From contig JBEKCB010000002.1 of assembly GCA_050015075.1 (NCBI GenBank), positions 32,001 through 96,000 on the forward strand: a DNA stretch of 64,000 nucleotides, in the 5' to 3' direction. The position numbers were made by a program, and so were the translations under genes. Source of the DNA: Candidatus Brocadiia bacterium (GTDB taxonomy: Bacteria > Planctomycetota > Brocadiia > CAIUPP01). Position 1 is the first letter of the stretch. Every line of letters begins with the position of its first letter. The notes under the pieces are model-generated. The model had not been told where the DNA came from and searched no databases. It saw only the letters and a program-made list of their open reading frames with translations. This document shows positions 1,469 to 64,000 of this stretch, in pieces.

Positions 1469-1532
1469 AACCACAGATGGACACAGATACGAATCGCTCT
1501 TGTTTTTTCTGCTTATCTGTGGTCATCTGTGG
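1469..1532. repeat. Inverted tandem-repeat element, 10-bp period (ACACAGAT family)
   Basis: Arms aaccacagatggacacagat (1469-1488) and atctgtggtcatctgtgg (1515-1532); same family as 58813-58896. Confidence 0.8.
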
Positions 1533-1661
1533 CGACAGGCAGCGCTCGGCCGCTCGCGCCGTCGCTCCGTGGTTTCAATCCACGACAGGTTGGTTGCAAC
1601 GATGGTCAATGAACTTACAGCCGATTCGCCTCTGCCCCCGAGCCGCCCTGAGGAAACTCGA

Positions 1662-2753
1662 ATGGGCGGCAAGCGCGTCGTCGTCGGCATGTCCGGCGGA
1701 GTGGATTCCTCGACGGCGGCGGCGCTGCTCCAGCGGCAGGGATACGAAGTCATCGGCGTGGGCCTTCGCCTTCCGCTGCTCCAAGCCGGCCTGCCCGCCG
1801 CGGCGGGCTGCAATTCACCGCGCCGGTGCTGCGGACCGGCGGCGATGGAGGACGCGCGCGCCGTGGCGAACCAGCTCGGCATCCGCTTCGCCGCGCTCGA
1901 TTACCAGGAACTCTTCAGCCGGGAAATCATCGAACAGTTCTTCCGCGCTTACGCCGAAGGCCGGACGCCGAACCCGTGCGCCGAGTGCAACCGCCTCATC
2001 AAATTCGGCCGCCTCCTGGAATTCGCCAGGATCATCGGCGCGGACTTTCTCGCCACCGGCCATTACGCGCGCACCGCGCTCGATCCGCAGAGCGGGCGAC
2101 ACCTGCTGCTCAAGGGCGCGGACCGCGAGAAGGACCAGTCCTATTTCCTCTACGGGCTTTCGCAGGAGCAGCTCGCCGCCGCGCTCTTTCCGCTCGGCGC
2201 GATGACCAAGGAGGAAACGCGCCGCCTGGCGCGCTCCTTCGGCCTGCCCGTCTCCGAAAAGCCCGGCAGCCAGGACATCTGTTTCCTGGGCGAGGGCGAC
2301 TACCGTTCGCTGCTGGCCGAACGCCATCCGGAATCGCTGCAGCCCGGCCCGATCGTGGACCTGCGCGGCCGCGTGCTGGGGACTCACAAGGGCGTCGCCG
2401 GGTTCACCGTCGGCCAGCGGAAATCGCTGGGCATCGCGGCCGGCGCGCCGCTGTACGTCCTGGCCCTCCGCCCCGCCGCGCGCACCGTCGTCGTCGGGAC
2501 GAAGGAGGAATTGCAGCAGGAGAAGTTCACCGTCGCCGAAATCAACTGGATCGCGTTCGATCCACCGCCGGACAACCTTGAAGCGGAAGTCAAGGTCCGC
2601 TACCGCCAGCCCGAGCAACCGGCCGCGATTCGCATGCTCGCCCCGGGCCGAGCCGAAGTCCGCTGGCACAGCCCGCAGCCCGCAGCCGCGCCGGGCCAAT
2701 CCGCCGTCTTCTACAGAGGCGAGGGCGTCCTCGGCGGCGGGATTATAGAGTGA
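1662..2753 (+). CDS. mnmA: tRNA 2-thiouridine(34) synthase MnmA
   Basis: SGGVDSS PP-loop, TPNPCAECN, ATGHYA, KDQSYFL, SQDICF, GQRKSLG, PGQSAVFY. Start placed at ATG 1662; the upstream part of the ORF reads through a repeat element. Confidence 0.95.
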   Translation: MGGKRVVVGMSGGVDSSTAAALLQRQGYEVIGVGLRLPLLQAGLPAAAGCNSPRRCCGPAAMEDARAVANQLGIRFAALDYQELFSREIIEQFFRAYAEGRTPNPCAECNRLIKFGRLLEFARIIGADFLATGHYARTALDPQSGRHLLLKGADREKDQSYFLYGLSQEQLAAALFPLGAMTKEETRRLARSFGLPVSEKPGSQDICFLGEGDYRSLLAERHPESLQPGPIVDLRGRVLGTHKGVAGFTVGQRKSLGIAAGAPLYVLALRPAARTVVVGTKEELQQEKFTVAEINWIAFDPPPDNLEAEVKVRYRQPEQPAAIRMLAPGRAEVRWHSPQPAAAPGQSAVFYRGEGVLGGGIIE

Positions 2754-2840
2754 CGCCGCCGCGCCGCGATCGTGCGAGGATTGACATGGTGATCCTGCGT
2801 CTGCACTTGTAATCGCACACAATAGCCTTAGCCAGAGGAG

Positions 2841-2869
2841 TTGACAATATATCCGTTCTGACATATAAC
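2841..2869 (+). promoter_or_regulatory. Sigma70-like promoter upstream of the HTH antitoxin
   Basis: TTGACA-17 bp-TATAAC, with partial dyad symmetry (tatatc...gacatata) typical of TA operators. Confidence 0.65.
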
Positions 2870-2914
2870 GGAGTGCGTGAATGTCCAGTAAGACGCTTAT
2901 GAAGAGGCGATGTC

Positions 2915-61414: not shown

Positions 61415-62884
61415 TCAGAGGCTCGGCCGTCGCGACGCGCGCCAGTTCGTCTCGCGCTCGTAGGCGCGGGCGAGCTGGAGCAGGCGCGGCTCCTCCATGG
61501 CGTTGGCCATGATCTGCGCGCCGATGGGCAAGCCGGCGCGGGTGAAGCCGCACGGAATGCTGATCGCCGGCGCGCCGACGAGGTTGCTCGAGATGGTGTA
61601 GATGTCGGCCAGGTACATCTCCAGCGGGTTGGCCACGCGCTCGCCGATGCCGAACGCCGGGCCGGGCGACGTCGGGCCGATCAGGAAATCCACCCTCTTG
61701 AACGCAGCGTCGAAGTCCTGCAGGATCAGCCGCCGCACCTTCGCGGCCTTCAGGTAATACGCCTCGTAATAGCCCGAGGAGAGCGCGTACGTGCCCAGGA
61801 GAATGCGGCGCTGGACTTCCGGCCCGAACCCCTCGGCGCGGCTGCGCGCGAAGACGGAGAAGATGTCCTGCGCGGCCGGGCTGCGGTAGCCGTAATGGAC
61901 GCCGTCGTACCGCGCCAGGTTCGAGCTGGCCTCCGCCGGCGCCAGGATGTAGTACGCGCCGATCGCATAGTCGTTGTGCGGGAGCGAGACCTCGGTCGCC
62001 TTCGCGCCGAGCTTTTCGAGCACCGCGACCATCGCGCGGACCGCCGCCGCGATTTCGGGATCCAGCCCCTCGCCGAAGAACTCCTTCACGATGCCGATCC
62101 GCACCGGCTCCAAGGGACGCTCGGCGGCCTCCAGGTACGGCTGAGCGGGCGCAGGAAGGCTGGTCGAGTCGCGCCGGTCGCGGTGCGCGATGACTTCCAT
62201 GAGCAGCGCGGCGTCGCGGACGTCCTTGGTGATCGGCCCGATCTGGTCGAGCGATGAGGCGAACGCGATGAGGCCGTACCGCGAGACGCGCCCGTACGTC
62301 GGCTTGAGCCCGACGACGCCGCAGAGCGCGGCCGGCTGGCGGATGGAGCCGCCGGTGTCCGAGCCGAGCGACAGGTGCGCCAGGTCGGCGGCGACGGCGG
62401 CGGCCGATCCGCCGCTCGATCCGCCGGGGATTTTCTCGGTATTCCACGGATTGCGGCTGGGGCCGAAGGCGGAATTCTCCGTCGAGGAGCCCATCGCGAA
62501 CTCGTCGAGGTTCGTCTTGCCGACGATGATCGCCCCTTCGCGCCGGAGCGCCTCGACCACGCAGGCGTCGTAGGGCGGCCGGAAGTTCTGGAGCATACGC
62601 GAGGCGCACGTGGTCGGGAAATCGGTGGTGCAGATATTATCCTTGACGGCGATGGGCACGCCGGCGAGCCGGCCGACGGCCTGCCCGCGCGCGAGGGCGG
62701 AATCAATCTCGTCCGCCCGCGCCAGCGCCCCGGCGCGGTCCAACGCCAGGTAGGCGTGCAGCGGCGGGTCCAGGCGCTCGATCCGCGCGTACAGGTCGGC
62801 GACGGCCTCGCGCGCGGAGACTTCCTTGCGCCGGATCTTTCCCGCCAGTTCAAGGCCGGTCAGGCTGTGCAGTTCCGTTTTCAC
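61415..62884 (-). CDS. gatA: Asp-tRNA(Asn)/Glu-tRNA(Gln) amidotransferase subunit A
   Basis: 'GKTNLDEFAMGSSTENS', 'PGGSSGGSAAAV', 'GSDTGGSIRQPA', 'EASSNLARYDG'. Confidence 0.95.
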   Translation of the reverse strand: MKTELHSLTGLELAGKIRRKEVSAREAVADLYARIERLDPPLHAYLALDRAGALARADEIDSALARGQAVGRLAGVPIAVKDNICTTDFPTTCASRMLQNFRPPYDACVVEALRREGAIIVGKTNLDEFAMGSSTENSAFGPSRNPWNTEKIPGGSSGGSAAAVAADLAHLSLGSDTGGSIRQPAALCGVVGLKPTYGRVSRYGLIAFASSLDQIGPITKDVRDAALLMEVIAHRDRRDSTSLPAPAQPYLEAAERPLEPVRIGIVKEFFGEGLDPEIAAAVRAMVAVLEKLGAKATEVSLPHNDYAIGAYYILAPAEASSNLARYDGVHYGYRSPAAQDIFSVFARSRAEGFGPEVQRRILLGTYALSSGYYEAYYLKAAKVRRLILQDFDAAFKRVDFLIGPTSPGPAFGIGERVANPLEMYLADIYTISSNLVGAPAISIPCGFTRAGLPIGAQIMANAMEEPRLLQLARAYERETNWRASRRPSL

Positions 62885-62909
62885 GAGTCACTCTTACCAG
62901 GACAGCGGT

Positions 62910-62997
62910 GATTGGGAAATTGGGAGATTAGGAGATTGGGGCTCGGCAATACCGCCAGGCGTTAATCTCCCAATCTCCCAATCTCCTAATCTCCCAT
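62910..62997. repeat. Inverted tandem-repeat element, 8-bp period (AATCTCCC family)
   Basis: gattgggaaattgggagattaggagattggg / aatctcccaatctcccaatctcctaatctccca, between gatC and gatA. Confidence 0.88.
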
Positions 62998-63288
62998 TCA
63001 CTCGATCACACGCGGCACGCGGAAAAAGCCGTCAGCCGCGTCCGGCGCGTTCTGGAGCGCGCTCTCGCGCGGCAGCGAGCCGGTCGGCGTGTCGTCGCGC
63101 CAGACGCTCGCGAGCGCGCCGGGATGCGAGAGCGGCTCGACGCCGCTCGTGTCCAGCTCGTTGAGCTTGGCGATCAGGTCGAGCACCTGGTTCAATTGGC
63201 CGGCCATCTTCTCGGCCATTTCGCCGGAAATGTCGAGCCGCGCCAGGTGCGCGACCGCGTCCACCTCTTTTTTGCTCAGGCTCATCAT
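62998..63288 (-). CDS. gatC: Asp-tRNA(Asn)/Glu-tRNA(Gln) amidotransferase subunit C
   Basis: 'VAHLARL', 'LNELDTSGVEP', 'LQNAP...GFFRVPRVIE'. Confidence 0.95.
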   Translation of the reverse strand: MMSLSKKEVDAVAHLARLDISGEMAEKMAGQLNQVLDLIAKLNELDTSGVEPLSHPGALASVWRDDTPTGSLPRESALQNAPDAADGFFRVPRVIE

Positions 63289-63488
63289 CGGCTCCTTCAA
63301 CCGGGAACGCGCGGAAACTCATTTTAACAACCGCGGTTTGAAAAGCAAACTCGCCGCGCAGGAGTGCGCGGCGCTTCCGGCGGCATGGGCGATCGCGCAC
63401 CCCCGAACTTGCGGCGCTCGCGGTCTCTGGCTTATAATCACGGCCGGTGGGAGAGCCCAAATCCAGATTGCAGAATGCGGATCGCAGA

Positions 63489-64000
63489 ATGAAGAATCCA
63501 AGAGTCGTCGTCTCTCGCTGTGAAACCTGCCTGTGCCTCCTCGCGCTGCTCGCACTGTGGGCGACAGGCTGCAACGAAACCGCGATGCCGGGAGGCGCCA
63601 AGGCCGGGGCTAAGGCGGCGGCGCCGGTCAAGGTCTCGGAGGCCGTCGAGAAGACGGTGCCCATCCAGATCAAGACGTTCGGCAACGTGCAGGCTTACGC
63701 CTCGGTCGCGATCCGGGCGCAGGTGAACGTCGAGCTGATGACGATCGGGTTCAAAGAAGGCGAGGAAGTCAAAGAGGGCCGGGTGCTCTTCACGCTCGAC
63801 GCGCGCCCGCTCGAGGCGGCGGTCCGCCAGGCCGAAGCCGCCGTCCGCCAGGCCGAAGCCGCGTTCAAACAGGCCGAGGCCACGCGCAAGCAGGCTGAGG
63901 CCACGGTGGTCAAGGACAAGGCCCTGGCCAGGAACGCCAAGCTCGAGGCCGACCGCGCGCAGACGCTGCTCAAACAAGGCGCCTACACGCAGGAACAGTA
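63489..64000 (+). CDS. MdtA-like RND efflux periplasmic adaptor (3'-truncated by the window)
   Basis: MKNPRV...WATGC lipobox, 'GNVQAYASVAIRAQV', 'FKEGEEVKEGRVLFTLDARP', then a helical hairpin; open to the window end. Confidence 0.85.
   Translation, partial: MKNPRVVVSRCETCLCLLALLALWATGCNETAMPGGAKAGAKAAAPVKVSEAVEKTVPIQIKTFGNVQAYASVAIRAQVNVELMTIGFKEGEEVKEGRVLFTLDARPLEAAVRQAEAAVRQAEAAFKQAEATRKQAEATVVKDKALARNAKLEADRAQTLLKQGAYTQEQ

Follow-up and report, generated by a model that had tools for sequence, protein, structure and literature searches.

The intergenic hairpins of this peat bacterium, built from tandem copies of a short word and their reverse complement, are probably non-coding members of DNA hairpin families of the REP/REPIN/Ssn kind, serviced by cognate small proteins. 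This reading is carried by the architecture of the elements, by a link between arm word and protein, by turnover between close genomes and by the recent amplification of an empty element. The preliminary description, made on the window (the whole stretch of 64,000 nucleotides that was analysed), had listed such hairpins and proposed a mobile or RNA-processing system, pointing to similar arms around four-helix-bundle (4HB, IVS/Avd-like) and GxxExxY genes elsewhere.

The listed set is real: twelve window sites are inverted tandem-word hairpins, with folding z-scores from -3.4 to -12.2 (against 60 dinucleotide shuffles), and three more (29161, 41767 and 63466) are lone arms, which without a partner do not fold (z from -0.7 to +0.6). 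All sit between or in protein genes and none in an rRNA gene; no strand is assigned to them. As had been noted, neither a GxxExxY nor a 4HB gene lies within the window, and an Rfam search of it gave no match. The names given to the gene junctions (cusB|cusA|tolC-like, arnB|arnC, arnA1|arnA2 and gatC|gatA) fit NCBIfam matches, several of them below the curated cut-off, while the label 'acylase' was without a match at 1e-10.

Among the word families of the GxxExxY class, the empty hairpin at 1469..1529 (10-bp word, z -3.8) lies just 3' of the stop codon of ORF 28-1455 and 5' of mnmA; the same family occupies this site in our main comparison genome (G001, same genus, about 92% identical) and matches the arms of cassette L019. 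A second 10-bp hairpin of this class, at 58813..58896, is likewise empty and common to G001. Between convergent genes lie two elements of one 8/9-bp family. At 39131..39265 an empty hairpin (39131-39236) is accompanied by an additional right arm; the family is shared with G001 at this site and matches cassette L033. The hairpin at 43894..43985 is empty too, and G001 has a different (6-bp) family at its site. At the arnB|arnC junction (23744..23887) a 9-bp hairpin is nested inside 8-bp outer arms, both of the GxxExxY class; the entries at 23744 and 23775, first taken as separate elements, are one composite, absent from G001, where both ORFs overlap.

The 4HB class is represented by empty hairpins at 7981..8065 (6-bp word, junction cusB-like|cusA; common to G001, missing in G002 and G005, family matching 4HB cassette L060), at 27488..27568 (7-bp word, with its start on the stop codon that ends the ArnA formyltransferase half; common to G001 with different unit numbers, matching cassette L044) and at 49903..49986 (7-bp word, between convergent genes; longer in G001, matching cassette L056). 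Further empty hairpins of the 6-bp family stand at 11339..11429, common to G001, and at 46188..46276, shortened in G001. In two elements (11340 and 23744) the upstream ORF runs into the left arm and stops within the loop: the left arm of the first lies in the final codons of cusA, and arnB reads into the second as far as 23804. Cognate genes were not found for the empty hairpins at 12828..12909 (7-bp word, past the tolC-like stop), of which G001 retains a single arm, and at 62907..63001 (8-bp word, gatC|gatA), where G001 has the 6-bp family. Of the lone arms, 41767..41803 belongs to the 12828 family, and G001 carries there a 6-bp-family hairpin and a 505-aa gene; 63462..63500 is a degenerate 7-bp array 5' of gatC, its partner arm not found within the 260 bases viewed. 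The third, a 7-bp array at 29161..29194 that is present in G001 too, lies in frame within an arnT-like gene, where the preliminary description had counted it as intergenic.

Genome-wide, there are about 290 tandem-word hairpin elements in 18 multi-copy word families, defined by k-mers read from the genome (a procedure that merges two related words into a single group, F2, and misses small families). The families have from 2 to 63 members, and are not the once- or twice-occurring hairpins that purely local growth would give. A strict detector counts 237 elements; controls with the partner reversed only or complemented only give 16 and 4, and 2.3 Mb generated by an order-5 Markov model give 0. 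Since the detector finds just 7 of the window sites, it undercounts. Element centres fall outside gene calls in 267 of 289 cases (rough calls made for this analysis), at a median of 18 bp from a stop codon; of 184 tandem gaps, 143 have the element closer to the stop, and divergent gaps are avoided (24/372 occupied, versus 158/1059 tandem and 38/215 convergent). Nested elements (13 cases) and tandem clusters occur, and shared loops and fixed three-unit arms recur across unlinked loci. The reported lack of U-tails is general, with a T-rich tail at only 17 of 574 hairpin tips.

The arms mentioned for other genomes are indeed found around small genes in this one: all eight of its GxxExxY and 4HB genes lie between inverted tandem-word arms, and gene-bearing copies thus exist. 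Over six genomes (G000-G005, G000 being this one), 22 of 24 GxxExxY and 24 of 32 4HB genes score above the 95th percentile of control arm scores, among GTDB loci from many phyla 50 of the 73 that were scored exceed the control maximum, and two of five GxxExxY loci on viral contigs have clear arms. The cassette proteins belong to PF13366, of the PD-(D/E)XK type (GxxExxY), or to PF05635 (4HB), and the repeat units, described at first as unrelated, fall into two corresponding design classes. 4HB arms have about 4-5 units of 6-8-bp words, mostly 6-7 bp, and GxxExxY arms about three units of 8-10-bp words with a common 4-base tip; a period of 6-7 is found in 33 of 44 4HB cassettes versus 3 of 85 GxxExxY cassettes. 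Twelve of the 18 multi-copy families match cassette arms (cosine at least 0.45), each with one protein class only. Within the GxxExxY class the arms become more alike as the proteins do (Mantel rho 0.38, p 0.001, the related cassettes not being independent); for 4HB the same test was not significant (rho 0.05, p 0.21, n 24). The supposed co-variation is therefore seen with protein class and, for GxxExxY, with protein similarity.

The other six families have no matched gene in the sample, including a 33-member group to which window sites 12828, 41767 and 62910 belong, and for the largest family, with 63 copies, the assembly (93.6% complete) yields no cognate gene. For the 62910 family a DNA query matched only three among 132 genomes in the class, and inspection of seven loci showed arrays, with no 4HB or GxxExxY link established. 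The arm words could also just travel with the gene, unrecognised by the protein. Complementarity to the own arm exceeds that to other arms, but we do not count this as evidence, since the tips were selected by their own pairing.

Comparison with G001 revealed element sites that are shared, empty or occupied by another family. At 76 element-bearing divergent junctions, 27 are filled in one genome only, 7 hold different families and 42 the same family; the last number means that many elements are old and stable, and the set as a whole shows that junctions are not invariant among relatives. Unit numbers differ between orthologous copies, so slippage acts on the arms, and some junctions retain a hairpin while switching family. 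Of the 13 intact G001 cassettes, just three keep their gene at the corresponding site in this genome; at L033 and L044 of G001 the gene lies between direct copies of the arm or hairpin, whereas the site here is occupied by one empty hairpin of that family. Contigs from four DNA runs, compared with 39000-58999, gave one informative joint and otherwise mostly repeat cross-matches: the X14 contig, from a diverged strain, is without the 49910 element and joins 49897 to 50001 via 23 other bases. The longest direct repeat in 25-bp flanks did not exceed permuted values (4.21 vs 4.16, n 91; 4.37 vs 4.23, n 161), in a test whose power is lowered by old copies and uncertain ends. As neither a target duplication nor a precise empty site was found, these comparisons identify no transposition chemistry. 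The composite of the 23744 type, about 150 bp long and empty, has 35 copies at 26 loci with non-repetitive spacers and loop in common and a median nearest-neighbour identity of 96%. Three of the four G001 sites that are clearly orthologous lack it. Empty elements have therefore spread.

PF13366 is entered as 'Unknown' (PMC3424549), and S23p is described as without known function (PMC4990558). In GxxExxY the residues E34, D73, E83-x-K85 and Q97 are invariant across 34 sequences, and the structure modelled for the protein (pLDDT 96) has Cas4 SSO0001 as its nearest match (Z 10.8, rmsd 3.0 over 98 residues, resting on Foldseek and its re-alignment). A single-sequence fold reached pLDDT 37, a PDB sequence search gave no match and an atlas search returned GxxExxY clusters only. 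The 4HB profile matches 2rld and 2gsc, with five chains each. In three shared cassette genes dN/dS is about 0.07-0.2.

From these observations a mechanism may be sketched, in which a full unit is a small GxxExxY or 4HB gene between inverted tandem-word arms and each protein subfamily has its own word. The proteins would act on their own arms, binding their word within an extruded single-strand hairpin; the GxxExxY enzyme would cut at this hairpin, and host repair would copy the hairpin, or the entire cassette, to a new site just past a stop codon. New copies would often land in or over an older hairpin, with no target duplication, and loss of the gene between direct arm copies would leave some empties at the original site. 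The weakest step concerns the 4HB protein, for which no catalytic activity is known and which would have to rely on an enzyme supplied in trans. The proposed non-autonomous mobile system with family-specific small proteins thus agrees with the cassette matches and the turnover, the proteins' action on the arms being presumed; of its two versions, the data favour spread at the DNA level.

The RNA version would take the elements as IVS-like: their long stems would be targets of RNase III or would stabilise mRNA, dividing operon transcripts and freeing the small gene as a separate RNA, and they would be kept for tuning operon expression. It draws on the 4HB genes in RNase III-excised 23S IVSs and the heptamer repeats at the Coxiella cut site (PMC4990558), on an RNase III encoded in this genome, on the position near stops and outside divergent gaps, and on junctions where a hairpin is kept while its family changes. 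We nevertheless consider it unlikely: mismatches in 184 empty elements are not G-U biased on the transcribed strand (152 vs 186), the G-U excess in GxxExxY cassettes is slight and non-significant, and six families have no significant orientation bias to transcription. Nor does it explain the composite at its many loci, the conserved DNase-type active site or the own word of each protein. By inferred replichore no G-T bias was seen either (141 vs 132, with a weak skew signal).

A still less probable account makes the empties immobile scars, left where cassettes entered by horizontal transfer, inserted and later lost the gene. L033 and L044, and the small share of G001 cassettes retained here, are what it would lead one to expect; against it, there are about 290 empties for 8 genes, and independent deletions would not give the unique spacer and loop common to the 26 composite loci. 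Very improbable, in our view, is a SINE-like spread in which Avd-like 4HB pentamers supply a trans-acting reverse transcriptase with hairpin RNA. Avd is described as a pentamer resembling S23 proteins that binds RNA with a reverse transcriptase (10.1101/2023.10.23.563531), and this genome has one RT gene; but element-rich G001 (91% complete) has no RT match, no target duplication was found and the GxxExxY class is not covered. Locally grown slippage hairpins or intrinsic terminators are hardly credible, for although slippage alters unit numbers, dispersed near-identical copies refute it as an origin, arms are identical with cassette arms, loops and three-unit arms are shared by unlinked loci, detector controls are near zero, T-rich tails are rare, and terminator calling on window positions 1-20000 called 0 of 4 elements.

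If the elements are indeed protein-serviced DNA hairpins, two large protein families without known function (PF13366 and S23p) become tied to defined DNA words, a link testable with short oligonucleotides, and the over-represented bacterial heptamer repeats, termed little studied by PMC4692102, gain a possible origin. Should GxxExxY proteins be word-specific single-strand nucleases, they would form a second large natural tool set beside Ssn. The elements also remodel operons, rewriting C-termini (arnB, cusA) and separating overlapping genes. A bolder extension, which we put forward tentatively and regard as rather doubtful, is that these are miniature selfish elements, widespread and governed by a 'word code' in which each of dozens of protein subfamilies reads a tandem word of its own. 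The 4HB/S23p homopentamer would wrap some five words of 6-8 bases, each subunit taking one, the Cas4-like GxxExxY would recognise an arm of three words and cleave it at the tip, and both would seed and replace hairpins past stop codons by a repair route unlike DDE, HUH or GIY-YIG. If true, this would give a function to two large orphan families and explain the excess of heptamer repeats.

Literature searches found no published description of a tandem-word hairpin and small-gene system, and the elements are not members of the Ssn, RAYT or rRNA-IVS systems, each of which they resemble in part. Unlike classical MITEs and IS, they gave no target-site duplication. The Ssn/SRM system (NTS-ssnA-NTS; Chenal et al. 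2025, PMC11893778) likewise has the gene of a small one-domain nuclease between copies of its own hairpin motif, which is also dispersed in many copies that lack the gene; nuclease-motif pairs are there thought to co-evolve, by a spread mechanism given as unknown. However, Ssn is a GIY-YIG protein, not PF13366 or PF05635, and the SRM is a short single palindrome, whereas the present elements have a tandem array in each arm, and their two arms pair together; the main text of that paper has no mention of GxxExxY, helix bundles, tandem or heptamer repeats. This genome also has a short Ssn-like GIY-YIG gene, which lies between two NTS-type motifs and not between tandem-word arms; GIY-YIG was rejected as the cis partner. 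REPIN-RAYT/TIRYT systems (PMC3116915, PMC3733652) too consist of inverted doublets outside genes, forming families that each go with a flanking gene, and REPINs share the nested insertions and tandem clusters (PMC3116915), but no HUH/Y1 transposase is flanked by the arms here, the arms are tandem words instead of tagged palindromes, and cassettes turn over quickly between close genomes. A RAYT was likewise rejected as cis partner, the two PF01797 (Y1) genes of this genome being flanked by other repeats and none being found in G001. The 23S rRNA IVS with its S23p ORF (Coxiella, PMC4990558) resembles the gene-bearing 4HB copies, with a PF05635 protein within a stem with heptamer repeats; the present elements differ in lying in mRNA operons and convergent gaps and not in rRNA genes, in being mostly gene-less, and in sharing their layout with a second, unrelated protein family. 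Rehm et al. 2015 (PMC4692102) describe heptamer repeats in Xanthomonas and Nostoc that are intergenic arrays of about four units, often in inverted pairs, near stop codons and varying in length between relatives; as presented there they are G-quadruplex motifs, with no link to a mobile element or cognate gene, and each genome studied has one word, against at least 18 word families here.

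The tandem-word hairpins described in the window are real, occur genome-wide and are tied to two orphan gene families, GxxExxY and four-helix-bundle (4HB). Tandem and inverted repeat scans together with folding bore out the listed window elements: 12 are hairpins of 61-144 bp (folding z -3.4 to -12.2), and three of the listed sites are lone arms. In the source assembly (G000; 4.64 Mb, 65% GC), where the window is C2:32001-96000, a strict detector called 237 elements, while its controls gave 16 with a reversed partner, 4 with a complemented one and none in 2.3 Mb of Markov sequence; the runs holding most of the window's words are peat metagenomes. 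Merging these calls with a TRF-based scan, minus three GC-rich elements, gave a set of 289, which forms 18 multi-copy families (2-63 members each) and nine singletons, and a k-mer arm map yielded 287 hairpins and 303 unpaired arms. A conserved loop motif is common to the different heptamers of two 7-bp families (F7 and F13; e.g. G000:C9:28854 and C11:108793), which suggests a common ancestry, the words having since been replaced or drifted.

G000 has three TIGR02436 (4HB) and five TIGR04256 (GxxExxY) genes, our own-profile search finding no further or broken ones there. All eight stand between tandem arms in inverted orientation, every gene having a word of its own, so that the anticipated copies with a gene as spacer do exist. 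In the six genomes G000-G005, 22/24 GxxExxY and 24/32 4HB loci scored above the control 95th percentile (two contig-edge loci excluded), those below being mostly long 4HB forms. Among 80 GTDB loci of one GxxExxY clade, with hosts in Acidobacteriota, Planctomycetota, Chloroflexota, Bacteroidota, Proteobacteria and others, 50 of the 73 scored (three lay at edges, four lacked a full hit) exceeded the control maximum, and their arm words are visibly related. Cassettes are laid out as arm-gene-arm, with several stacked arms per side, or as a gene flanked by direct copies of the whole hairpin. The Tad pilus cluster of G002 (L056 and L058, G002:C61) holds five 4HB cassettes in 40 kb; there and at G000:C11:11216-12956, heptamer arms are apparently translated as N-terminal leaders of TadE-like proteins, these Tad labels being read off the sequences.

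The GxxExxY protein is PF13366, with G31, E34, D73, E83, K85, Q97 and R124 invariant in 34 sequences and a Q-x-x-x-Y pattern that we take to be the RecB/Cas4-type nuclease motif. Its model (pLDDT 96.4) matched best Cas4 SSO0001, followed by MGME1 and lambda exonuclease, and re-alignment gave Z 10.8 for SSO0001 (next 8.2); the predicted fold is Cas4-like and nuclease activity putative. The 4HB profile matches 2rld and 2gsc (Xcc0516), five chains each, and Xcc0516 is described as a homopentamer (PMC4990558).

The proposed co-variation of protein family with repeat unit stood for class and for GxxExxY similarity, and was not significant for 4HB similarity. Among cassettes with clear arms, a period of 6-7 bp occurs in 33/44 4HB versus 3/85 GxxExxY cassettes, and the median arm has 4.3 and 2.8 units, respectively. 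Empty families divide likewise (4.3-5.5 units, variable, versus 2.7-3.1, fixed), and one 4-base tip motif is present at both ends in 91/117 elements of the 8-10-bp families. Arm similarity rises with protein similarity for GxxExxY (rho 0.38, p 0.001, n=85) and shows no significant correlation for 4HB (rho 0.05, p 0.21, n=24), with significance overstated because related cassettes are not independent; between classes it is at most 0.18. At a cosine of 0.45 or more, 12/18 multi-copy families have a matching cassette and six do not. The 6-bp family has no associated gene in G000; its arms border a 4HB subfamily in G001 (a same-genus genome) and in G013 (a genome of another family). Arms of about five words may correspond to the five-subunit 4HB ring, and three-word arms to the putative GxxExxY nuclease.

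The expected variation of orthologous junctions was evident against G001 (about 0.4 Mb fetched, ~92% identical, a sample biased because regions were picked partly around cassettes and the window). Elements occupy 76 of 196 inter-alignment-block junctions, a count leaving out shared copies within unbroken alignments: 42 carry the same family, 14 are G001-only, 13 G000-only and seven have different families. The 14 window sites covered comprise nine shared, one cut to one arm, one absent and three with another family, and an X14 sequencing-run contig, from a diverged strain, lacks the element at 49910. Only 3/13 intact G001 cassettes share their gene with G000 at the corresponding site (dN/dS about 0.2, 0.07 and 0.14). 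At two others (L033, L044) a hairpin of the matching family stands empty in G000; at L024 G000 has leftover arms in which a foreign hairpin is nested, and elsewhere a short bare spacer, another family, an unrelated gene or a hairpin of NTS-like type (L040 being compared by BLAST coordinates). At one tad-cluster site the 4HB genes of G000, G001 and G002 have diverged, and each goes with a different heptamer. At one junction a 6-bp element is joined to the right arm of a 7-bp element at a short shared word, a single hint of possible microhomology use.

Other genes also occur at such sites. Where the window has a lone arm (41767), G001 has a 505-aa gene, presumably with an adenine-methyltransferase-like motif, beside a 6-bp-family hairpin (L066, G001:C23, ~14300-16000); at the site of a G001 4HB cassette, G000 has a 445-aa gene (C21:45139-46688), by motif presumably Fic-like. 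At G000:C18:29011-29864 two direct copies of a 6-bp-family hairpin and flank enclose an unknown gene of 150 aa, and G001 has one copy and no gene; hairpin pairs may therefore carry or lose unrelated cargo.

The nested element at window 23744..23887 occurs 35 times at 26 loci (84-100% identity to the window copy; median nearest-neighbour identity 96%) and is missing in G001 at 3/4 clear orthologous sites. At arnB|arnC the two G001 ORFs overlap at the point of the G000 insert, which points to an insertion. Target duplications, looked for in the flanks, showed no excess over the null expectation. Likewise, G-U-type mismatches (152 sense vs 186 antisense) gave no sign of RNA-strand selection, and six families had no significant orientation bias relative to transcription. 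These null results favour an element that is copied at the DNA level, without classic transposition.

By rough gene calls of our own, only 22/289 element centres lie inside genes and the median distance from arm to stop codon is 18 bp. Elements occupy 158/1059 tandem, 38/215 convergent and 24/372 divergent gaps of 80-600 bp (p 3e-5). The cusA and arnB ORFs each extend into a left arm, their stop codons falling in the loop, and the 29161 array is in frame within an arnT-like gene. A 24-bp unit in five in-frame copies (19403-19527) adds ~40 residues to a membrane protein, is missing from G001 and resembles a palindromic repeat of other junctions. Because of the elements' bias towards stop codons and the Coxiella precedent of rRNA intervening sequences (IVS), we retain IVS-like RNA processing as an unlikely explanation, against which the null mismatch-strand and orientation tests speak; DNA-level copying is preferred. 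The elements did not qualify as rRNA IVS, MITEs or terminators, and U-tails are nearly absent, in line with the claim (T-rich tail after 17/574 hairpin tips).

In mostly open literature (main texts), we found no description of such a system for GxxExxY, PF13366/PDDEXK_3 or PF05635/TIGR02436, alone or in combination with repeats, GxxExxY receiving a passing mention in one paper. The supplementary tables of the Ssn paper could list further repeat-linked genes. Related literature includes 10.1101/2021.01.26.428298, PMC3424549, 10.1101/2024.02.27.582315, PMC3936711 and 10.1101/2023.10.23.563531. This analysis adds orthologous sites whose alleles are filled, empty or replaced, a composite of young age, the division by unit number and strand tests with a null outcome.

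The hairpins are members neither of Ssn/SRM (a GIY-YIG nuclease with a dispersed hairpin motif) nor of REPIN-RAYT (REP doublets with a Y1 transposase), and the Ssn-like and RAYT-like genes of G000 have repeats of their own, different from tandem-word arms. A short GIY-YIG gene lying between two inverted motifs that fit the Ssn paper's NTS consensus (G000:C15:8400-8950) is, judged by sequence, an Ssn/SRM locus; several further short GIY-YIG hits came from G001. Y1 transposase (RAYT/TIRYT-like) genes lie at G000:C26:67017-67346 and C44:10217-10519, each bordered by inverted repeats of its own. Two REP/SRM-like hairpins without tandem words (window 40386-40471 and 42888-42972) have ~47 related loci in G000, and at the 42888 site a 7-bp tandem-word hairpin takes the place of this kind in G001. 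The composite element also forms head-to-tail arrays (G000:C1:58911-59349 and C13:69365-69981; periods ~124 and ~110 bp) that recall BIME/REPIN clusters. The likeness to Ssn/SRM and REPIN-RAYT lies in the mode of working, a small gene with a dispersed cognate hairpin, and in probable DNA-level copying without classic transposition, which has been proposed for those systems too.
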